The notes beneath the pieces were generated by a model. That model had not been told where the DNA came from and made no database searches. It saw only the letters and a program-made list of their open reading frames with translations. A program made the position numbers and the translations under genes. This document shows, piece by piece, positions 4,250 to 28,039 of a stretch of 30,020 nt of DNA (positions within the stretch are counted from its first letter, which is position 1; each line of letters starts with the position of its first letter). The stretch comes from Nanobdellati archaeon. GTDB lineage: Archaea > B1Sed10-29 > WALL01 > WAMD01. The stretch lies in the NCBI GenBank assembly GCA_015522495.1, contig WAMD01000010.1:1-30020 (forward strand), given 5' to 3'.

Positions 4250-6598
4250 GTGATGATAATGGCAAAGAAAGAAATAATTCTTAAGGTTGCAGAAGCTTTT
4301 AGGTCTGACGCTGGTAGGGGGATAGTCAGGTTAGACACAGAATCCAGGCAGGCACTTGATGTTACGTCAGGTGATATAGTAAAGATAACAGGAAAGAGAG
4401 AGACAGCAGCGATAGTGTGGCAAGCACATCCTCAGGACGAGGGGCTTGGTGCTATTAGGATGGATGGAATTCTTAGGCAAAACGCAGATGTTTCTATTGG
4501 GGATAAGGTTAAAGTGGAAAAGTTTGAGCCTGGTGAGGCTGCAAAGATAGTTTTAGCCCCATCCCAACCAATTAGATTTTCACCTGGTTTTGAAGACTAT
4601 GTTAGGAACAGGCTTGTAGGGAGGCCAGTTTCTAAGGGAGACAGAGTGCTCATAGGAGTGTTTGGTCAGTCTTTGATGTTAATGGTTGTAAATACCAAGC
4701 CAAGGGGCATAGTCCAAATAGGTGAGAAGACAAGGATAGAATTGAAGACAGAGCCGGTTAAGGAGTTAGCTGGCGTGCCACAGGTAACTTACGAGGATAT
4801 TGGTGGACTAAAGGATGCAATACAAAGAGTTAGAGAAATGATCGAAATCCCAATGAAACATCCTGAGTTGTTCGAAAGGCTAGGTATAGAGCCACCTAAA
4901 GGTGTTTTGTTATATGGCCCTCCTGGAACAGGAAAGACACTGCTCGCGAAGGCTGTCGCTAATGAGACAGATGCACACTTCATTGCGTTGAATGGTCCAG
5001 AGGTCATGAGTAAATTTGTTGGTGAGGCTGAGGAGAGATTGAGGCAGATATTTAAGGAAGCCCAAGATAATGCACCAGCAATAATATTCATTGATGAGAT
5101 TGATGCCATCGCTCCAAAGAGGGAAGAAACAGTTGGGGAAGTTGAAAGGAGAGTGGTTGCGCAGCTACTTGCTTTAATGGACGGGTTGCAGTCTAGAGGG
5201 CAGGTGGTTGTAATAGCTGCCACAAACAGGCCTAATGCCATCGATCCTGCTTTGAGGCGACCTGGTAGGTTTGATAGGGAGATAGAGATAGGGGTGCCTG
5301 ATAGGAACGGCAGGAAGGAGATATTGCAGATACACACAAGGAATATGCCTATAGAGCCAGAGTATAACAAGAAGGTGGTAGTTGAGGAAATAAAGAAATT
5401 AAAGATGGATAACAAATTGAAGCCGAAGATTTTGAAGAAACTGTCAGACGCAAAAGACATTGCAAAGGTTACTATGTCTTTCCCATCGAATGTCAAATAC
5501 GAATTGAATAGGAGGCTAGTTGACAAACTGCTTGAAGAGCTGGCGGATAAGACATACGGCTTCGTTGGTGCTGACCTAGCGGCCTTGTGTAAGGAGGCCG
5601 CTATGAAGGCCTTGAGGAGAATACTACCTAAGGTTGATCTTGAAAAGGAGGAGATACCAAAAGAGATACTTGAGAGTCTGAGGGTTACAAAGGATGACTT
5701 CCTCAACGCGCTTAGGGAGATACAACCGTCTGCAATGAGAGAAGTCCTTGTTGAAGTACCCAAAGTCAAGTGGACAGATATAGGTGATTTGAAAGATGCC
5801 AAACAAGAGTTAAAGGAAGCTGTGGAATGGCCATTGAAATATCCCAAGATGTTTGAGAGAATGGGGATAAAGCCACCTAGTGGGATCCTCATGTTTGGAC
5901 CACCTGGAACAGGAAAGACACTACTTGCCAAGGCAGTTGCAAATGAGTCCGGTGCAAACTTCATAGCAGTTAAGGGACCAGAACTTCTGAGTAAATGGGT
6001 TGGAGAAAGTGAGAAGGGAATCCGAGAAATATTCAGAAAGGCAAGACAGGTGGCGCCGTGTGTTGTATTTTTCGATGAAGCAGACGCAATAGCCCCTAGA
6101 AGAGGTATGTACGAGGGAAGTCATGTTACTGAGAGCGTTGTTAATCAATTGTTAACAGAAATGGATGGCATTGAGGATACTAGGGGAGTTGTAGTTTTAG
6201 GAGCAACTAATAGGCCAGATCTCATAGATCCTGGATTGCTAAGGCCAGGGAGATTTGATAGGTTGATATTAGTTCCAGCACCGGATAAGTCAGGGAGAAT
6301 GGAGATACTGAAGGTGCATACAAGGAAGGTTCCTCTTGCGAAGGATGTTAGCCTAGAAAAACTTGCAAAGGAAACTGATGGATTTTCCGGTGCAGATATA
6401 GAGGCATTAGTTAGAGAAGCAGTTATGACTGCCCTTAGGGAGAACAAATCAGCCAAGGAGGTCAGGATGAAACATTTCAAGAAAGCCATGGAGAGGATAA
6501 GACCGAGTATTAGGCCAGACGATAACAAGAAATACAAAATGTTTCTTGAGGGTTATAGAAAGGATAAATCAAGAGATGAACTAGGGTATTATGGTTAG
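4250..6598 (+). CDS. cdc48: CDC48/VAT family AAA+ ATPase
   Basis: N-domain plus two AAA modules (GPPGTGKT twice, FIDEID and [15 protein letters not shown] and LLRPGRFDR). The real start may be ATG 4253 or 4259, behind GGGGTGA. Confidence 0.97.
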
Positions 6599-6615: not shown

Positions 6616-7227
6616 CTAGAGCTTTTGCTGGCTTTCAGTGTGGTCTTCAGTCTTCTTTTTTAGCACTAGGTATATCTTTCTCTTTCTTGGATTTTTTGGG
6701 TTATCTATTGCAAACTCTCCATCAAATCCAGCAGAGACAAAGGCTTTACCTACTGCAATCATGTCTTTTTCTGATTTAGGATAGAATTGTATGACAACTG
6801 AGCCATTACTGGTTAGAACTCTGTAAAACTCCTTAGCGACTTTCTTTAAGTCTTTCCTAGGTATCCACTGCAAAGCAGATATAGATAATATTCCATCGAA
6901 GCTATTATCCTCAAATGGGAGCTTTCTCATATCAGCCACTAATGCATCGAACCCGTTTTTCTTAGCCTCTTTTACCATTTTTTCAGATAGGTCTATCCCT
7001 ATGGTATTAAAACCATTATCCAGAAGAACTTCCATTGAAAACCCAGGCCCACATCCAACATCAAGTATTCTCCCAGATTTCCATCCAATCAGCTCTAGAG
7101 CTCTTAGGGTTATCCTCTTTTGTATTGTCTTAATTGCATTGGAAGTAGAATAAGCATCTGCATATTTGTCAAAGTATTCCTTTGCAGTGGTCTTTTCTTC
7201 AGGTCTCTTCTTTTTTACTTTCCACAT
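6616..7227 (-). CDS. Bud23/WBSCR22-like class I SAM methyltransferase (putative SSU rRNA m7G methyltransferase)
   Basis: ILDVGCGPG SAM motif plus Bud23-type segments RPEE, IQKRITLRALELI, SISALQW, QFYPK and AGFDGEFAIDNP...KIYLVL, compared from memory with yeast Bud23. Confidence 0.8.
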   Translation of the reverse strand: MWKVKKKRPEEKTTAKEYFDKYADAYSTSNAIKTIQKRITLRALELIGWKSGRILDVGCGPGFSMEVLLDNGFNTIGIDLSEKMVKEAKKNGFDALVADMRKLPFEDNSFDGILSISALQWIPRKDLKKVAKEFYRVLTSNGSVVIQFYPKSEKDMIAVGKAFVSAGFDGEFAIDNPKNPRKRKIYLVLKKKTEDHTESQQKL

Positions 7228-7236
7228 TTTTACCCC

Positions 7237-7812
7237 TTAAAATAACCCAAACAGCAACACACTTGGTATTGCTATGCTTATCAACCAAATAGCTGGATTC
7301 CAACCCATTACCTTGTACCCGTCAAGTGGTGGGAATGGGATTAAATTAAACGCAGCCAGGAAAAAGTTTACCCAGGCACCATAAATCCCAATTATTGTCA
7401 ATATCTTTGCTGGTGACACAACTGCTAGCCCCATAAATAGTATGCCTAGTATTATGTTAACCCCAGGCCCAGCGAGGCTTATAAGTCCGTTTTCCCTACG
7501 CGTTATTGGCCGCCCACCAATATATACTGCACCAGGGGCTGCAAAAATGAATTTTCCAGCTGTTAACAGTGCCATGGCCAGGGCTAGTATGAGACCAGGC
7601 ACCCACGCCCTATAAAACGCGTGGAGGCCGAACAACCTTGCAACTGTTCTATGACCAAGTTCATGGAAGATAAAACCAGCACCTAAAACTAACAGTAAGA
7701 TAGCGAAGTCTTGAATAAACTTGTTTATTCCGAGAAAAATAGAGTCCATTGAGAATGCCAGGGTAATTGTTATCCAAGATACTGTTAGGTGGATTATTTC
7801 TGTTCTATCCAT
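7237..7812 (-). CDS. M50 (site-2 protease-like) membrane zinc metalloprotease
   Basis: HELGH zinc motif, AGPGVN, NLIPFPPLDG and several hydrophobic helices. Confidence 0.92.
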   Translation of the reverse strand: MDRTEIIHLTVSWITITLAFSMDSIFLGINKFIQDFAILLLVLGAGFIFHELGHRTVARLFGLHAFYRAWVPGLILALAMALLTAGKFIFAAPGAVYIGGRPITRRENGLISLAGPGVNIILGILFMGLAVVSPAKILTIIGIYGAWVNFFLAAFNLIPFPPLDGYKVMGWNPAIWLISIAIPSVLLFGLF

Positions 7813-7855: not shown

Positions 7856-8977
7856 TTAGCCTATGTAAGCCTCCCATGGTTTTTTCTCTGGTTTGTTGTA
7901 CATATCTCTTTTGTTAAGGATATCTTTGATGGTTTCCATTTCCCTAGTTAGGTCGCTTACATCTACACCACTACTTTCTAATACCCTTGACGCTATATTT
8001 ATCTGTGAAATCTTTGCATCCATGGCAGCTATAGTCCTGAGAGAATCTTTCATTAAGTCGCGGGTTTCAGACTTACCTTTTATTCCTTTCGCCTTCTTTT
8101 CGTTCTCTAGTAATCTGTTTGCATTTTCCCTAAGTTCAGACAACATGTTTTCAACTTCATTGACTGCATCTTCTTTTGGTTTTATCCCTACTCTCTTCGC
8201 GACAATTAAATGGTCAAGTACATCAGCAGTTACATTTTTTTCACTGGCTTTGAACGCTTGGATACTACCGTTTCCACCCGTTTTTTTCATATTCATTATA
8301 TCATTGACTATGCTATCCTCAAGTTTGCTCCTTTCTACAACTAGTTCATCTAGCGGTTTTTTCCAGTATTCATTTAACTTCTTTTTCTTCAACAGTTTTA
8401 GATATACGTCGATATTTGCTTCTATCTTTATGAAGAATTTTCCATGTTGCTTTGGTATGCTCCCCCCCATTTTATCTACCTTGGATAAATCCCCTAAAAC
8501 CTTTTCTCTAAGCTTGTCTAATCCAATTATGCGACCGTACGCCTTTGATAGTCTTCCCTTTCTTTTTACGGCAACACCATAGAGGATGTTTGTAAATTCA
8601 TCGATTGTTTTTTCTTCCTTGAGAATCCTTGGTATTATTGGCAGATCAGCCTCTAACTGCATTTGTCCATTTGGATCGATCACCATCTCACTTTCATGTT
8701 TTTTTATGTAATCTGTGATTATAGCGTTTCTCATAGTTTCCAGGTCAACTTGTTTCTTCATCAAATCCTCAATCCATCTGACTAGCTTACCAAACCTTAC
8801 CCTTTTCCCTTTCTTTTTTATGTACTCTTTAGTTAGAGACTCTCTTCTTATCTCGTTTGTTTCTTCTGCTATTTCCTTTGCAAGGCTACCAAGTAGCACA
8901 TGTCTAGGACTTAGCCTGGCGAGTTTATTCATTAACTTCTTGGCACTACCTGCGCGTGCTTTTTCCTTTGCTGGCAT
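7856..8977 (-). CDS. Hypothetical basic, helical soluble protein
   Basis: Long ORF filling the space between two real genes, with K/E-rich composition. The start is placed at ATG 8977 (MPAKEK) because GGTGA precedes it; the track start is 9019. Confidence 0.7.
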   Translation of the reverse strand: MPAKEKARAGSAKKLMNKLARLSPRHVLLGSLAKEIAEETNEIRRESLTKEYIKKKGKRVRFGKLVRWIEDLMKKQVDLETMRNAIITDYIKKHESEMVIDPNGQMQLEADLPIIPRILKEEKTIDEFTNILYGVAVKRKGRLSKAYGRIIGLDKLREKVLGDLSKVDKMGGSIPKQHGKFFIKIEANIDVYLKLLKKKKLNEYWKKPLDELVVERSKLEDSIVNDIMNMKKTGGNGSIQAFKASEKNVTADVLDHLIVAKRVGIKPKEDAVNEVENMLSELRENANRLLENEKKAKGIKGKSETRDLMKDSLRTIAAMDAKISQINIASRVLESSGVDVSDLTREMETIKDILNKRDMYNKPEKKPWEAYIG

Positions 8978-9079
8978 CTTATCACCAACAAAATTAATTT
9001 TGGCAGGGTTTTTATACATTCATTAGGAGTAACCTTTCATTAGTTATAACAATATGACTATCTAATTCTCAGCTAATAC

Positions 9080-9928: not shown

Positions 9929-9987
9929 AAGTCTATTACGAAAAAGATTTAAATAACCTTTATTCCCAAGTTATGTGGGGGAGAGGA

Positions 9988-10164
9988 ATGGATGATAAAG
10001 GACAAATATCTGCTGAGTTTTTAGTTTTGTTTGCTGCTGTTTTAGCGCTTGCAACCCTTGTTGTAACCCACTTGTACTCTACTGGGAAATCTTTTACTAA
10101 GTCTAGTGCTGAATCTACAGATAAAGCAATGAAAGTTGTTAAAAAATTAAATGGAGGCAAATAG
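9988..10164 (+). CDS. Small type IV pilin-like protein with class III signal peptide
   Basis: MDDKG/QISAE followed by a hydrophobic helix (Q+1, S+3, E+5). Start reassigned to ATG 9988 behind GGGGGAGAGGA. Confidence 0.85.
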   Translation: MDDKGQISAEFLVLFAAVLALATLVVTHLYSTGKSFTKSSAESTDKAMKVVKKLNGGK

Positions 10165-10177
10165 GAGGGAGAGGGAA

Positions 10178-10348
10178 ATGGATGATAAAGGTCAAGTATC
10201 CGCGGAGATGTTGGTTTTAATGGCAGCTGTCCTGGCTGTGGCTTGGTTGGTTCTTTCCAGCCTAACCAGCACTGCAAAGTCAACAACGCATTCTATCAAC
10301 AAGACGTCTAAAAAGATACTAAACAAGGTTGAGGAGATAACCGGATGA
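10178..10348 (+). CDS. Small type IV pilin-like protein, paralogue of the preceding gene
   Basis: MDDKG/QVSAEMLVLMAAVLAVAWLVL. Shares ATGGATGATAAAGG(A/T)CAA with the previous gene. Start reassigned to ATG 10178. Confidence 0.85.
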   Translation: MDDKGQVSAEMLVLMAAVLAVAWLVLSSLTSTAKSTTHSINKTSKKILNKVEEITG

Positions 10349-10740
10349 AAGGCCAGTCTAGCCTAGAGTACCTAGCCGTGCTTGCTGCTGTTCTGGCATT
10401 CCTAGCGGTCTGGGCAGGAACAGCAGCAAGCACTGGAAATCTAGTTTTTTCTAGTTTGAACTCGATGGATGTTAGGACGTCTGCTAAGCAGTTAGTTAGT
10501 GAGATAGATTCCACTTGTCTTATGGCACCAGGCTCTAGTGTGACATCTGAATTTGTTTTTCCTACTAGAACAAACATAAAATACCTGAATAATAGCATAC
10601 TCTTTTTCTGGGGGAATAATACATATGCCTCCAAAACAAGGTGTAGTGTGAGTTTACCTACCAGTATGTATGGCACTGTCCGTGTTCGAATGGTGAGGTA
10701 TAAGTTTGGGGTTGTGCTCTATGAAATAAATCAAACTTAA
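10345..10740 (+). CDS. Type IV pilin-like protein with class III signal peptide
   Basis: MKG/QSSLEYLAVLAAVLAFLAVW. ATGA overlap with the previous stop codon. Confidence 0.85.
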   Translation: MKGQSSLEYLAVLAAVLAFLAVWAGTAASTGNLVFSSLNSMDVRTSAKQLVSEIDSTCLMAPGSSVTSEFVFPTRTNIKYLNNSILFFWGNNTYASKTRCSVSLPTSMYGTVRVRMVRYKFGVVLYEINQT

Positions 10741-11117
10741 TACCCAAAATAAAAATAGACGTCCTCAATTGCTTGTCCAGAGAAATCAGATCTCTTCAAG
10801 ACTATAATATCCTTAGGAGAGTCCCATTTTATCACAATCTCTTTGTTATTCTTTACAATTTTCATCTGAAGGTCTGGATTTGTCAGCTCCAGCACCTGCC
10901 TTGTTGCGATGGGGTCAAGATTAAGGTCTAACACTAGTTCTGAAATATCACTCCCTTGTTTGTATATCACAGCTTTATCTAATGTCGCGTGATGTACAGG
11001 TCTAGCTATCAGAAGGATAAGCACCATCAATGATACTATTGCCTCTATACTAAACACTGCTCTTGAAGGTTTTAGTATTGTCCTAAACCCTGATAAATAC
11101 AATTTTTTTGTTTTCAT
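10737..11117 (-). CDS. Pilin-like protein with class III-like signal peptide
   Basis: RA/VFSIE (E+5) followed by hydrophobic AIVSLMVLILLIA. Last gene of the minus-strand operon. Confidence 0.65.
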   Translation of the reverse strand: MKTKKLYLSGFRTILKPSRAVFSIEAIVSLMVLILLIARPVHHATLDKAVIYKQGSDISELVLDLNLDPIATRQVLELTNPDLQMKIVKNNKEIVIKWDSPKDIIVLKRSDFSGQAIEDVYFYFGY

Positions 11118-11418
11118 CTATAACAACCCTGGTCATGGTTCCATTCCCACATATCTTGCAGTTTCCAAATTTTTCTTTTAGTTTTTTGCTAGATACTGTC
11201 TGCGGTTCTACAGATTTAATATCATCTGAGAAATATGCTAATCCAGTTATGTAGTTGTTTACCAACTCATCTGATTTTATTATTGACCTAGCTTGTTCCA
11301 TGGCTATCGACTGTGTCGAGGCTATGGTCGATGTATACACTAGGATATGCACCAGTGCTATGGCAGTCATAGCTATTGTTATTCCTGTCCACACTTGTAA
11401 GTCAATCATCTCTAGCAT
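11083..11418 (-). CDS. Small protein with one N-terminal membrane helix inside the pilin-like operon
   Basis: Hydrophobic WTGITIAMTAIALVHILVY segment with no canonical class III cleavage site. Start placed at ATG 11418, 7 nt after GGAGG. Confidence 0.6.
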   Translation of the reverse strand: MLEMIDLQVWTGITIAMTAIALVHILVYTSTIASTQSIAMEQARSIIKSDELVNNYITGLAYFSDDIKSVEPQTVSSKKLKEKFGNCKICGNGTMTRVVIDENKKIVFIRV

Positions 11419-11608
11419 ACTGAAACCTCCGATAACTTGAGTTGCCAATCCCCAGTGCCCAGTAATCTTTTTCTATTAACCTAGTTTCGTTCATTTTTGG
11501 TTGGTTTAATATAGTAGCTAGCGGGGATATTGCACTAACAATCACAAGTACAACAATCAATACTAGTGCAATCACTACTAGCGTTTCAATGCTCACCTGT
11601 GCCCTCAT
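11402..11608 (-). CDS. Small type IV pilin-like protein with class III signal peptide
   Basis: MRA/QVSIETLVVIALVLIVVLVIV (Q+1, S+3, E+5). Confidence 0.85.
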   Translation of the reverse strand: MRAQVSIETLVVIALVLIVVLVIVSAISPLATILNQPKMNETRLIEKDYWALGIGNSSYRRFQYARDD

Positions 11609-22094: not shown

Positions 22095-23372
22095 ATGAAG
22101 GTTACTTTACTTGGGGCTGCCAATGAAGTTGGTAGAAGTGGAGTTTTAGTTGAATCAGGAGATAATAGGTTTTTGTTTGATTATGGTGTAAAACTTCAAG
22201 ATCCAAAACCTGCTTATCCACTTCCAGTTCACGGTTATCTAGATTTTGTTGTTTTATCCCACGCGCATTTGGACCACTCTGGTGCGCTGCCATTGCTCTT
22301 CAAGGGGAGGGAACCGAAAGTGTTCACACCCTCAGGCACACCAGACCTGGTTGATATACTACTTAGAGATTTCTTAAAGATAGCCAGGATGAAAAGGCAG
22401 GAGGTATGGTTCGAAAATCATCTCAAGAGGTTAAAGAGGAGTTTGCAAGGTGTCGATTATGAAAAAGAGACAAGTGTTGGTGAAGTAAATTTTAAGTTCT
22501 CAGATGCTGGTCACATACTAGGAGCTGGAATGACACATGTGCAGGCAGATACAACTTTTGTTTATAGCGGTGATTACAAGGATACTGAGACTAGACTTCA
22601 TGCCCCTGCAAAATTAGAGAATATACCTACCGCTGATGTTTTAGTGACTGAAACAACATATGGAAATAGAGAGCATCCAGATAGGAAAGCTCTGGAAAAG
22701 GAGTTTGTCAATGACGTGAAGTCTGTTATAGAATCTGGTGGAAGGGTTATATTACCGGCCTTTGCGGTGGGAAGGGCTCAAGAGATAGTTGAGATGCTGT
22801 ATGCGAACAATGTGGATGTCCCCATATACCTGGACGGAATGGCTCAGGATGTTGCAGAGGTTTATCTAGAGTATCCAGAATTACTTAGGGATTACCAAGA
22901 GCTGTACAATGCGATGAAAGAGGTTAATTGGATTGCAGATGAAAGGGAGAGAAAGAGGGTATTTGATGAACCAGGCATTGTTGTCACAACTGCTGGGATG
23001 TTGAATGGTGGACCTGCACTTTACTACTTACTCAACTTTAGAAAGCTTGGGGAGGATCTTGCGATATTTCTCACAGGTTATCAGGTTGAAGGTACACCTG
23101 GAAGAAGACTGTTGAAGACAAAGGTAATGGATATCGATGGAAATACAGTTGATTTTTCAAAGTCAAGAATAAAGTATTTTGACTTCTCAGCTCACTGTGA
23201 TAAAAATGGGATATTTAGATTGATAGATAAAGTAAAACCACAAGTGTTAATACTTAACCACGGTGATCCAGACGCAGAGCAAGCAGTGAAGGAAAAGGCA
23301 GAGGATAAAGGTGCATATGTCTTCTCCCCAAAGCCAGGCGAAACAATAGATATATCCAAATATGTGAAATAA
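22095..23372 (+). CDS. beta-CASP metallo-beta-lactamase ribonuclease (CPSF73-like, no KH domains)
   Basis: HAHLDH, AGHILG, YSGD, ETTYG, FAVGRAQE, FSAH and NHGD. Confidence 0.92.
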   Translation: MKVTLLGAANEVGRSGVLVESGDNRFLFDYGVKLQDPKPAYPLPVHGYLDFVVLSHAHLDHSGALPLLFKGREPKVFTPSGTPDLVDILLRDFLKIARMKRQEVWFENHLKRLKRSLQGVDYEKETSVGEVNFKFSDAGHILGAGMTHVQADTTFVYSGDYKDTETRLHAPAKLENIPTADVLVTETTYGNREHPDRKALEKEFVNDVKSVIESGGRVILPAFAVGRAQEIVEMLYANNVDVPIYLDGMAQDVAEVYLEYPELLRDYQELYNAMKEVNWIADERERKRVFDEPGIVVTTAGMLNGGPALYYLLNFRKLGEDLAIFLTGYQVEGTPGRRLLKTKVMDIDGNTVDFSKSRIKYFDFSAHCDKNGIFRLIDKVKPQVLILNHGDPDAEQAVKEKAEDKGAYVFSPKPGETIDISKYVK

Positions 23373-23398: not shown

Positions 23399-24034
23399 GT
23401 GGGTATGAGATGTCCAAGGTGTGGAAAAGAGACAAATGTCCTTGTTGAAGGGGTCTGTCCTGATTGTTATATTGAAAGGGAAAAGATTTCGTTAAAAAAG
23501 AAGGTTGTACACTTGTGTCCTAGATGTGGTAGGATAAAAGTTGGCAAAGACTGGAAGAGTATTGGTAGTATAGGGGAGTTTATATCCTCAAACTTGAAAA
23601 CCAAGATAAATGAGCCAAAGGTGAAAGTGGAAAAAGTTGAGATTGAAAAAGATAGATTACATGTTCTTTTTGTTGTATATGGAATGCTTGGTGGCAAACA
23701 CGTATCAAAGGAAGTAGATACAACAATAAAGATAATTAGGGAAGTGTGTCCTAGTTGCTTAGCCCCAGATAGCTTTGATTTTAAGTTACAGTTTAGGGGG
23801 GATTACCAGAAACCACTTGACGAGGCTTTGAGGATAGTTGATCGTTATAAGCTAGAGAAAAAGAGGGAAGGGATTGATTTATTGGTGAGAGACAAGAAAG
23901 CAGCGAGAGATATTGTAAAATCTTTGAGGAAGAAATTCAACTTTGAAATCAAGGAGAGCTACAAGCTAGTTGGTGAGGACGTGCACTCTGGGAGGAAAAG
24001 GTACAAGGCTACCTTTCTCCTAAGATTCAAATGA
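23399..24034 (+). CDS. nmd3: Nmd3-family large-subunit maturation factor, short form
   Basis: CPRCG...CPDC, CPRCG...W and CPSC zinc motifs, ending in ESYKLVGED...RYKATFLLRF. Start is GTG 23399 or ATG 23405. Confidence 0.8.
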   Translation: MGMRCPRCGKETNVLVEGVCPDCYIEREKISLKKKVVHLCPRCGRIKVGKDWKSIGSIGEFISSNLKTKINEPKVKVEKVEIEKDRLHVLFVVYGMLGGKHVSKEVDTTIKIIREVCPSCLAPDSFDFKLQFRGDYQKPLDEALRIVDRYKLEKKREGIDLLVRDKKAARDIVKSLRKKFNFEIKESYKLVGEDVHSGRKRYKATFLLRFK

Positions 24035-25842: not shown

Positions 25843-26517
25843 ATGACAAATGAGATGGGCAATAGGCGTGTAGATAAGAAGTCTGTATATGATGTTGATT
25901 TTGATTATTATATCAATAACGCAACTCCAGCATATATTGATTTCATGAACTCAGAACACGATTACTTAAGGAATAGCATATCCAGGGGCAGGCTTTTGGA
26001 GCTTGGTGCGGGTAGTGGTAGGATACTAAAAGCTGTCCATGATATTGTAGACTCAGCAGTAGGTGTTGACAAGTCAAAAACGCAGATCTCTGCGCTGAAG
26101 AGGAACGTCCCTCATGGGAATATTGGCGTGGTCCATGCAGATATGCGGGATCTACCTTTCAAGGAGGGCTACTTTGACTACGCAACTCTCATGTTCAGCA
26201 CATTAGGGAATTTCCATGATGAAGACAAAGCCAAAATACTGAGCGAAGCTAGGAGGATCTTGAAGAAGGGAGGAAAGCTGTTTGTTAGTGTTTACGCTGA
26301 GAACGCATTTGACTACCAAAGAGAGTTTTATACAGGACTCGGCTTTGATGTCCGCAACGAAGGAAGTTTAACGATAGTCTCTGGAGAAAATGGCGGTTTT
26401 GTCTCTGAACGATTCACAAGAGAAAAGCTAGAACAGCTGGCTAGATCAGCAGGTTTCTCAGAGGTTCGCATTACTCCTCTAACCGAGTGGACGTACATGT
26501 GCGAGATGGTGAAGTAA
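25843..26517 (+). CDS. Class I SAM-dependent methyltransferase, substrate unknown
   Basis: LLELGAGSGR, GVDKS, DMRDLPFKEGYFDY and RILKKGG. Confidence 0.88.
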   Translation: MTNEMGNRRVDKKSVYDVDFDYYINNATPAYIDFMNSEHDYLRNSISRGRLLELGAGSGRILKAVHDIVDSAVGVDKSKTQISALKRNVPHGNIGVVHADMRDLPFKEGYFDYATLMFSTLGNFHDEDKAKILSEARRILKKGGKLFVSVYAENAFDYQREFYTGLGFDVRNEGSLTIVSGENGGFVSERFTREKLEQLARSAGFSEVRITPLTEWTYMCEMVK

Positions 26518-26522
26518 CATTA

Positions 26523-27539
26523 TTAGCTAATCCTATACCCAAGCCTCCTCAACGCCTGAATCTCTTCCTTTCTCCCTAGCTTTGCCATCTCAACAGCTTC
26601 CCTCAGCGTCAGCGTGGCCTCGTCCATCGCCTTCCTGTCTACTGGGAAAGGCACACCGTCCTTTCCACCAACTGCGAATGCATACCTTATCGGATCCTTG
26701 TAACTGGGCGGCTTCCCGAAGACGACATCTGAGATTAAGGCAAGTGCTCTCAGAGTGGACGGTCCAACTCCCTTAACTAGGAGGAGCTCCTCGAAGTTCC
26801 TGGGCTGGATCTCGTAGACCTCCTTCAAAGCGCTCCAGTTGGCCCTCTTAGGCATTTCAAGCCTAGCCCCAAGTTCTGGCATCTCTAGCTTTGGCCTTTC
26901 CCTAGCTAGGTTTAGCACTGTTTCCCTAGCCCCCTCAGATTCACTGGACGCTAGGTTCATGACCTTGTTTTCCACCTTCTGACCTGCAACCAGCTGGGGG
27001 TCGTTCAGGAAGTCGTCTGCATTGAACCAGTGGTACCTCCTGGCCCATCTGGAATTCATGCCCTGCTGGATCACAGTCCAATTACCTTTCTCGTCGAAGG
27101 CCAAGGTGTGGTGGTATAGCTGGTATCCGTCCTGGACGCATGCGTTGTCAACCTTGGCAACTAGTCTGCTGGCCCTGACTAGCTCCTTCAATCGCCTAGT
27201 CCCTAGCCCTAGCTGGTCTCCTAGCTTAACTATCTCATCTGGCGTCTTCCTGCTAGCTCTCCCCTTCCCACCAGCCACGACCAGGCCTAGCTCTGGGCCT
27301 AGAGCGGCTTTCAAAGCACCCATTGTTACGGTGGTTGTCCCAGATGAGTGCCAGTCAAATCCCAGGACTAGGGAAAGGCTCTGGAACCAGTAGGGGTGGG
27401 CTAGCCTCCTCAACAGCTCTTCCGTCCCGTACTCGTTTACTATGACCTCTGATATTGCTTTCCCTAGCTTTACCATCTTTCCAAACAGCCATGGTGGTGC
27501 ATGTCCTGTATGCAGTGGAAGGTCTGCTGTCCCTCTCAT
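26523..27539 (-). CDS. DUF763 family protein
   Basis: ADLPLHTGHAPPWL, GFDWHSSGTTT, DGYQLYHH, WTVIQQGMN, HhH-like LLLVKGVGPSTLRALAL and FAVGGKDGVPFPVD. Start placed at ATG 27539 (MRGTAD). Confidence 0.88.
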   Translation of the reverse strand: MRGTADLPLHTGHAPPWLFGKMVKLGKAISEVIVNEYGTEELLRRLAHPYWFQSLSLVLGFDWHSSGTTTVTMGALKAALGPELGLVVAGGKGRASRKTPDEIVKLGDQLGLGTRRLKELVRASRLVAKVDNACVQDGYQLYHHTLAFDEKGNWTVIQQGMNSRWARRYHWFNADDFLNDPQLVAGQKVENKVMNLASSESEGARETVLNLARERPKLEMPELGARLEMPKRANWSALKEVYEIQPRNFEELLLVKGVGPSTLRALALISDVVFGKPPSYKDPIRYAFAVGGKDGVPFPVDRKAMDEATLTLREAVEMAKLGRKEEIQALRRLGYRIS

Positions 27540-27591
27540 ATTCTCACAATATGTTTTTAACACAGAATTCAATAAACCTATCGGTGATTCT

Positions 27592-27819
27592 ATGAAGGTG
27601 GATGTGGTCGTTGAAGAGGATGAGGAAGGAGGGTATGTTGTCTATGTTCCTGTGCTTCCTGGTTGCCACTCCCAAGGGGATACTCTAGATGAGGCTTTGG
27701 CAAACATAAAAGAGGCAATAGAACTTTACTTAGATGTCCTAGATCCGGATGAGAAGGAGGCAGCGTTGTACGCCATCTCCCACGTCAGAGGAATGAAAAG
27801 GGTGGAAGTCAATGCCTAA
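27592..27819 (+). CDS. hicB: HicB-family antitoxin (short, no DNA-binding C-domain)
   Basis: EEDEEGGYVVYVPVLPGCHSQGDTLDEALANIKEAIELYL. ATG 27592 follows GGTGA. Confidence 0.9.
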   Translation: MKVDVVVEEDEEGGYVVYVPVLPGCHSQGDTLDEALANIKEAIELYLDVLDPDEKEAALYAISHVRGMKRVEVNA

Positions 27820-28039
27820 GATAAAACCGATGCACAGCAAAGCGTTAATTGAAATTCTAGAAAAATTGGGTTTCAAAACCATAAGGCAGAAGGGATCCCA
27901 TCTGATAATGAGAAAGGATGGGCATATTGTAGTTGTCCCTGTCCATGAAAAACCTTTAAAACCTGGATTGATTCATGCTATATTGAGGGAAGTAAAGGTA
28001 CCCAGGTCTGAATTCATGCATATGGTAGGTGAGGTATGA
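27812..28039 (+). CDS. hicA: HicA-family toxin (mRNA interferase)
   Basis: LEKLGF...RQKGSHLIM...VVVPVH...GLIHAIL. Overlaps the hicB stop. Confidence 0.92.
   Translation: MPKIKPMHSKALIEILEKLGFKTIRQKGSHLIMRKDGHIVVVPVHEKPLKPGLIHAILREVKVPRSEFMHMVGEV

Follow-up and report, generated by a model that had tools for sequence, protein, structure and literature searches.

The locus described here raises the question of whether Bud23, the 18S rRNA (guanine-N7)-methyltransferase of eukaryotes (S. cerevisiae Bud23; human BUD23, or WBSCR22; KEGG K19306), has an orthologue in archaea and, if it does, which nucleotide of the archaeal ribosome that orthologue would modify. Around the decoding and P sites of the eukaryotic small ribosomal subunit only two base methylations are conserved, one of which is made by Bud23/WBSCR22; the protein is also a 40S assembly factor that has been linked to human disease. 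Bud23 is usually regarded as eukaryote-specific, as the original prediction from this DNA had remarked, and that view is stated in both Bourgeois et al. 2017 (PMC5372719) and van Tran et al. 2018 (PMC6144793), according to which no archaeal protein has significant similarity to Bud23. In the supplement of Birikmen et al. 2021, BUD23 is dated to 'LUCA' if orthology is called loosely and to 'LECA' if the filtering is strict; the archaeal orthologues are not identified there. A full-text literature search for an archaeal Bud23 (Asgard, DPANN, Lokiarchaeota) found no published report.

The gene under study lies in a window of 30,020 nucleotides, by which we mean the whole stretch of DNA that was analysed. 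The assembly that contains it comprises 345 kb in 37 contigs with an estimated completeness of 61%, and the nearest named relatives of the source genome are Micrarchaeota metagenome bins. The gene and the spacer that precedes it are as follows.

6616..7227, minus strand: coding sequence of a 203-amino-acid Bud23-like class I SAM-dependent methyltransferase, hereafter P0001 (ORF list and translation; the best PDB, Swiss-Prot-model and profile matches are Bud23)
7228..7236, minus strand: 9-nt spacer leading from the M50-peptidase gene to the P0001 gene, with GGGGT ahead of the ATG (read from the sequence; function putative)

The open reading frame is intact, with its ATG at 7227, its stop codon at 6616-6618 and 203 codons, and the ORF list and translation confirm that its predicted placement at 6616-7227 on the minus strand is exact. 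Upstream on the same strand, 9 nt away, lies a gene for an M50-family peptidase (7237-7812). The short spacer with its GGGGT suggests that the two genes are co-transcribed and that translation of P0001 begins at a Shine-Dalgarno-type start. A gene identified from its sequence as a Cdc48-type AAA ATPase (4250-6598, plus strand) is convergent with the P0001 gene.

When P0001 was compared with all PDB sequences using phmmer, yeast Bud23 was matched at E = 2.5e-27 over residues 8-193, and the human protein and a third, fungal Bud23 were matched at E of approximately 1e-23. The top five distinct PDB sequence matches are all Bud23 (E = 2.5e-27 to 5e-23), and seven orders of magnitude separate them from the next family. 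The best non-Bud23 chain is PH0226 of Pyrococcus horikoshii (PDB 1VE3), an uncharacterised class I methyltransferase of the Methyltransf_11 type, which has the same Rossmann core and is matched at E = 4.5e-16; this match spans residues 17-150 of P0001 only and leaves out the N-terminal RPE and the C-terminal motifs. Thus, the original claim that the likeness to Bud23 extends beyond the generic SAM motif is borne out far above chance, and the yeast Bud23 strings that had been quoted in its support are correct, being reproduced in the HMMER alignment to PDB 4qtt_B.

We also compared two profiles, one built from 26 archaeal homologues and the other from 27 eukaryotic representatives. An hhalign comparison of the two gave a probability of 100%, an E-value of 1.1e-58 and 34% identity over 198 columns, which amounts to the whole catalytic domain. 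Reciprocal searching, which had been proposed as a check, was carried out with a eukaryotic protein (P0201) that matches human BUD23 at E = 7.6e-91. Its sole match in the genome that contains the window is the P0001 ORF, at E = 1e-27.

The general-purpose family databases lend themselves to a different reading, namely that P0001 is a generic UbiE/BioC/MenG-type small-molecule methyltransferase whose likeness to Bud23 stems from the shared Rossmann fold alone. Both Pfam, in which the match is to Methyltransf_11 (E = 6e-25), and NCBIfam place P0001 in generic class I methyltransferase families only, and some databases call its relatives 'UbiE'. However, the scores of P0001 against the NCBIfam equivalogs all fall far under the cut-offs (70.5 against 185 for BioC, 45 against 158 for MenG/UbiE and 79 against 155 for DVU_1556), and Bud23 leads over these families by 7-8 orders of magnitude in sequence and structure searches.

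The structure searches were based on an AlphaFold2 model of P0001 with a mean pLDDT of 92.5 and the alternating strands and helices of the class I fold. The best eight Foldseek matches in the PDB are all Bud23 (4QTT/4QTU, 6G4W and 7WTS/T/W), with TM-scores of 0.75-0.91 and rmsd values of 1.3-1.8 A over 169-199 columns. All later matches exceed 3.4 A in rmsd, and their E-values are poorer by about six orders of magnitude; PH0226 superimposes with an rmsd of 3.4 A. The seven best-scoring Swiss-Prot models are likewise Bud23 (human, yeast, S. pombe, Dictyostelium, cow, Arabidopsis and mouse). P0001 and Bud23 share a fold, the SAM motifs and the RPE, SISxxQW, QFYP and D.P..K[KR] motifs across the whole catalytic domain (compare PDB 4QTT/4QTU, 6G4W and 7WTT), with an identity of 31-37%. 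The two differ in that P0001 lacks an insertion of approximately nine residues that Bud23 has after the QW motif, and in length, P0001 having 203 residues and Bud23 275-281.

The conserved motifs of P0001 are given below, each with the evidence that defines it.

7195..7206, minus strand: RPEE, residues 8-11, N-terminal and Bud23-family-specific (conservation against a generic methyltransferase outgroup)
7087..7125, minus strand: helix IQKRITLRALELI, residues 35-47, ahead of the Rossmann core (alignment; the model has a helix at 30-47)
7042..7068, minus strand: SAM-binding motif I, ILDVGCGPG, residues 54-62 (Pfam match, conservation)
6991..6993, minus strand: D79, at the end of strand beta2, aligned to the invariant eukaryotic D77 (invariant in the archaeal and eukaryotic sets)
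6865..6885, minus strand: SISALQW, residues 115-121, after strand beta4 (conservation; S115, S117, Q120 and W121 are Bud23-specific)
6775..6789, minus strand: QFYPK, residues 147-151, on strand beta5, Bud23-specific (alignment, conservation)
6676..6705, minus strand: DNPKNPRKRK, residues 175-184, a basic C-terminal loop conserved with the eukaryotic D.P.S.KAKK (alignment, conservation)

The motifs first noticed in the sequence (RPEE, the pre-core helix, ILDVGCGPG, SISALQW, QFYPK and DNPKNPRKRK) all occur where they had been placed. Conservation reaches 85% or more in the archaeal and in the eukaryotic set alike at thirty alignment columns; at 28 of these the two sets have the same consensus residue. 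Approximately 13 of the 28, among them R8, P9, E10, R42, S115, S117, Q120, W121, Q147, P150 and D175, are absent from the generic outgroup methyltransferases. R8, P9 and E10, for example, are invariant in the 26 archaeal homologues and 85-100% conserved in the 27 eukaryotic Bud23 proteins; the position of W121 is occupied by H in generic methyltransferases. Q36 and R42 of the pre-core helix are likewise conserved with eukaryotic Bud23. The family-specific columns that archaea and eukaryotes have in common map not to the SAM site but to the N-terminal segment and the loops that follow strands 4 and 5, and it is with these same parts that class I methyltransferases bind their substrates. Within the SAM site, D56, G58, G60, G62, D79 and D99 vary little or not at all across the archaeal family; the acidic residue of the D79 type binds the ribose of SAM in class I methyltransferases.

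Phylogenetic analysis, which had also been suggested as a check, gave the same assignment. Two maximum-likelihood trees, one quick and one careful, both place P0001 in a Bud23-like clade that is set apart from generic methyltransferases with a branch support of 100/99. Given the equivalog scores, the gaps in the searches and this branch, the identification of P0001 as a generic UbiE/BioC/MenG-type enzyme is largely refuted, and we consider it very improbable. Instead, the sequence searches, the reciprocal search, the predicted structure, the family-specific residues and the phylogeny together support the homology with Bud23 that was originally proposed, and it is highly probable that P0001 is a member of the Bud23 family. 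Within the clade, P0001 belongs to a four-member Micrarchaeota group that is starred in the quick tree (99*), and it stands beside the same relatives in the careful tree. Eukaryotic Bud23 and the main Asgard group are each monophyletic (both 100/100). Neither tree settles how the large clades branch, and the outgroup attaches on the branch of P0001 itself, which is probably an artefact because the outgroups were chosen by their likeness to the query. Since the clade order is unsettled and the root unreliable, we make no claim regarding a sister archaeal group or a donor lineage, and a sister relation between the Asgard and eukaryotic proteins, which we had entertained, was dropped on the same grounds.

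Given that the family has been thought to be confined to eukaryotes, a Bud23-like gene in a metagenome bin might reflect eukaryotic contamination or a recent transfer from a eukaryote. The surroundings of the gene speak against this. Besides Cdc48, the 30-kb contig encodes archaeal housekeeping proteins, including a topoisomerase, NFACT, a RadA/RadB-like protein, NMD3 and a beta-CASP nuclease, and the neighbourhood of M50 peptidase and Cdc48 around the Bud23-like gene is common to three related genomes. Moreover, no archaeal sequence is nested among the monophyletic eukaryotic Bud23 proteins in the careful tree, and none of the archaeal homologues examined has the C-terminal domain of the eukaryotic proteins. 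Synteny and phylogeny thus refute contamination and recent transfer, an explanation that we regard as barely credible.

The neighbours of the P0001 gene in the window (the M50 peptidase, Cdc48, a 387-aa protein and an EamA transporter) offer no hint as to its function and do not point to the ribosome. The 387-aa protein is Lys/Glu-rich, lacks a Pfam match and is encoded at 7856-9019 (minus strand), upstream of the M50-peptidase gene and on the same strand; further upstream, within 9960-11448 (minus strand), are four ORFs of 108-126 aa, also lacking Pfam matches. Elsewhere in the window, a beta-CASP/RMMBL ribonuclease gene (22095-23372, plus strand) is followed directly by a gene of the NMD3 family (23399-24034, plus strand; E = 4e-33). 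In eukaryotes, NMD3 is the 60S export adaptor. The window also contains a second, generic class I methyltransferase (Methyltransf_25/11, 224 aa; 25843-26517, plus strand) and a gene for a DUF763 protein (26523-27572, minus strand; E = 4e-122), and its G+C content, approximately 40% overall, rises to 0.49 at 26001-28000.

P0001 is not isolated among archaea. Among 1.84 billion cluster representatives there are 42 matches at E <= 1e-30, and a pattern scan of 185,579 species genomes found at least 121 related loci. The best 80 of the 121 loci are all archaeal and belong to Micrarchaeota, Iainarchaeota, unclassified DPANN and Asgard groups, the last represented by Promethearchaeota (Loki), Hermod-, Hod-, Odin- and Thorarchaeota; one further sub-clade contains an Aenigmarchaeota protein. 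Counting orthologues with the family profile at E <= 1e-25, we found a Bud23-like gene in 16 of 25 genomes of the window's phylum (all at least 80% complete) and in approximately a quarter of the sampled Asgard genomes (42 of 151). Since the gene is missing from the other nine of the 25 phylum genomes, the Bud23-like family is patchily distributed and therefore not essential. The NCBI name for these homologues is just 'class I SAM-dependent methyltransferase', and the automatic annotation in IMG calls some of them '18S rRNA (guanine1575-N7)-methyltransferase'.

Many of the Asgard genomes that carry the gene (G041, G044, G083 and others) have a second, more distant Bud23-like paralogue. The full-length, RPE-type Asgard gene matches the family profile at E of approximately 1e-80; the paralogue, of approximately 220 aa, matches from about profile position 23 onward at E of approximately 1e-35 and lacks the N-terminal RPE segment. 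In two genomes (G177 and G118) the two genes are adjacent. The Asgard gene also occurs in a recurrent block, observed at L057:3912-12278 and approximately 50 other Asgard loci (L020-L084), that consists of a 93-aa ThiS/Urm1-like protein, a Gtr1/RagA-like GTPase, the Bud23-like protein, a protein of approximately 1470 aa and one of approximately 370 aa. Pfam gave no match above cut-off for the ~1470-aa protein and no match at all for the ~370-aa protein. In 18 of these Asgard loci, a gene encoding the ribosomal protein eS25 sits immediately upstream of the Bud23-like gene, on the opposite strand. This adjacency hints at a ribosomal role, and the hint is a weak one because the loci are kin.

Some members of the family depart from this architecture. 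Two metagenomic proteins, P0121 (412 aa) and P0128 (382 aa), carry another class I methyltransferase domain fused to the Bud23-like one; this extra domain is N-terminal in P0121 and C-terminal and Methyltransf_23/DREV-like in P0128. In relatives, several Bud23-like matches (G022:C15, G024:C63, G008:C12, G014:C2 and G017:C25) contain one in-frame TAA or TAG or lie in open frames of 356-435 aa. The former may be matches that end past the stop codon, and the latter may be fusions.

Eukaryotic Bud23 has two attributes that bear on how P0001 could work: a C-terminal extension that is tied to nuclear and processome functions, and a dependence on Trm112 for both stability and activity. As predicted, P0001 ends with its catalytic domain; a Pfam search found no match to the extension (PF12589, WBS_methylT). 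Likewise, PF12589 does not occur in the precomputed Pfam lists of 120 listed homologues, whereas it is present in 18 of the 27 eukaryotic representatives. The WBS_methylT extension is a eukaryotic accessory part that lies outside the catalytic core, and P0001, which lacks it, gives the Bud23 family an archaeal member of minimal architecture.

With respect to Trm112, a Pfam PF03966 search confirmed the earlier statement that the window holds no gene for it. We extended the search to the entire source genome (G000, 61% complete) and five relatives that are 85-96% complete. No Trm112 above the Pfam cut-off was found in the source genome or in G002, G003, G010 and G019. The single match above cut-off, in G001, is the zinc ribbon of TFB, as is the best match in G000, and several sub-threshold matches are the zinc ribbon of Csl4, so these matches were rejected as Trm112. 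PF03966 matches above cut-off do occur in two Asgard genomes. The TFB (TFIIB-like) protein of the source genome (G000:C7 = L001:58-1428, plus strand), like that of G001 (L085), is unusual in having a Lys/Glu-rich N-terminal extension of approximately 170-240 aa before its zinc ribbon.

One small gene of the source genome, on a separate contig (G000:C17 = L002:1186-1338, minus strand), encodes, at L002:1189-1338, a 50-aa zinc ribbon with the arrangement CPKC-X18-CPRC followed by TFTIEDGIV, a Trm112-like tail. The signature of Trm112 is a [C/D]P.[C/D]-X19-36-C..C zinc knuckle and, after it, a Y-P-I-x-D-G-I-P-type strand at the C-terminus (PMC5372719). The 50-aa protein scores 18.2 bits against PF03966, for which the cut-off is 22, and many other zinc-ribbon families score equally. 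Its Trm112-like C-terminal motif is lost in relatives, a profile of those relatives found no Trm112 in the PDB, and small zinc-ribbon-like ORFs occur in 28 of the 31 genomes of the class that were searched, including genomes that have no Bud23-like gene. Judged by its sequence, the 50-aa protein is a weak candidate for a mini-Trm112. Its gene is flanked by a 258-aa gene and a beta-lactamase-fold RNase gene, which look like those of a D-Tyr-tRNA deacylase and an aCPSF1-type nuclease, respectively.

Archaeal class I methyltransferases that depend on Trm112 pair with it through a beta-zipper on strand beta3 (PMC6144793). The Hvo_0019-Trm112 complex of Haloferax volcanii (PDB 6F5Z) does appear among the structural matches of P0001, at ranks 20 and 24, and the match is a generic one of fold (E = 1e-11, rmsd of approximately 5 A) to a protein of another family. 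Whereas Bud23 has Trm112 as its partner, no clear Trm112 was found in the genomes of the P0001 lineage that were searched, and the enzyme of this lineage may be Trm112-independent or may work with a very diverged mini-Trm112.

What, then, would P0001 do? We put at roughly 0.6 the probability that P0001 is the archaeal orthologue of the Bud23/WBSCR22 catalytic core and methylates N7 of a guanine in helix 29 of 16S rRNA, the substrate and the modified atom being predicted from homology. P0001 would use motif I and D79 to bind S-adenosylmethionine; the conserved guanine in helix 29 would be flipped out and methylated at N7, probably on a late precursor of the small subunit, by analogy with eukaryotes. 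Its predicted target is the second G of GGAAUC, or of the GG in GGAAUCCCUAG, and we hold m7G formation by P0001 at this equivalent of E. coli G1338 to be about as probable as the reading as a whole. By our own count on the E. coli sequence, we take the second G of GGAAUC to be E. coli G1338, which corresponds to G1575 of yeast, according to the literature, and to G1639 of human. The guanine at this position is universally conserved and contacts the P-site tRNA. The target context, GGAAUCCCUAGUAAUCG, is present in the 16S rRNA of a genome of the same family that carries an orthologue; it was read from that genome since the 16S rRNA is missing from the assembly that contains the window, and the window itself has no Rfam match.

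P0001 combines membership in the Bud23 family with an intact SAM site and with family-specific residues that are retained around the predicted substrate pocket. A true member of the family might nevertheless modify something else, for example another guanine of rRNA, a tRNA or a protein, if specificity shifted on either the archaeal or the eukaryotic branch. An identity to eukaryotic Bud23 of just 31-37% or so is compatible with such a shift, and the existence of several archaeal sub-clades and of a second paralogue in many Asgard genomes suggests functional diversification. In addition, no m7G has been reported at the G1338-equivalent of archaeal 16S rRNA, the few model archaea that have been analysed including no DPANN or Asgard species (PMC5372719, PMC6144793). 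On the other hand, RPE, the Q and R of the pre-core helix, SISxxQW and QFYP are conserved outside the SAM site, at the positions where class I methyltransferases bind their substrates, and the target is a universal nucleotide in a universal sequence context. We therefore consider a different substrate unlikely, though deserving of serious attention.

Methylation of rRNA guanines at N7 is not in itself foreign to prokaryotes. Bacterial RsmG/GidB (16S m7G527) and TK0008 of Thermococcus (m7G in the 23S P-loop) carry out the same chemistry, but their protein families and rRNA positions differ from those of Bud23, and neither targets the G1338-equivalent. The RsmG family is not among the listed Pfam and NCBIfam matches of P0001. 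The case of TK0008 illustrates that m7G sites in archaeal rRNA are still being discovered (PMC12124282).

Finally, P0001 might serve mainly as a non-catalytic factor in small-subunit assembly that binds the 3' basal subdomain of pre-16S rRNA; methylation would then be dispensable or already lost. In yeast and human cells, 40S biogenesis requires the Bud23 protein and not its activity (PMC5372719, PMC7758049), and since the essential role of yeast Bud23 is non-catalytic, the function of P0001 need not equal methylation. However, the invariance or near-invariance of the SAM-binding residues across the archaeal family argues for retained catalysis, and the eukaryotic partners of such a role, Dhr1 and the U3 processome, are missing along with the C-terminal extension. 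To our knowledge, archaea have no U3 or Dhr1 processome; therefore, the role that Bud23 could share between the two domains would be methylation or rRNA binding only. For these reasons, we find a mainly non-catalytic role improbable and favor methylation of the helix 29 guanine as the activity of P0001.

Orthologues of Bud23 in archaea contradict the statement in the specialist literature that no archaeal homologue exists (PMC5372719, PMC6144793), and they add a ribosome-biogenesis enzyme to the 'eukaryotic signature' proteins that have archaeal roots. As a tentative proposal that may well prove wrong in part, we suggest that Bud23 could be an archaeal rRNA methyltransferase that eukaryotes inherited, that its Asgard and DPANN orthologues would make a hitherto undetected m7G at the P site of 16S rRNA, that the Micrarchaeota enzyme may be free of Trm112, and that the C-terminal extension, the dependence on Trm112 and the processome roles may be later eukaryotic additions. 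The Micrarchaeota and Asgard orthologues predict a new modification of archaeal 16S rRNA at a functionally central nucleotide, and the minimal, possibly Trm112-independent form represented by P0001 would offer a way to separate the catalytic role of Bud23 from its role in assembly.
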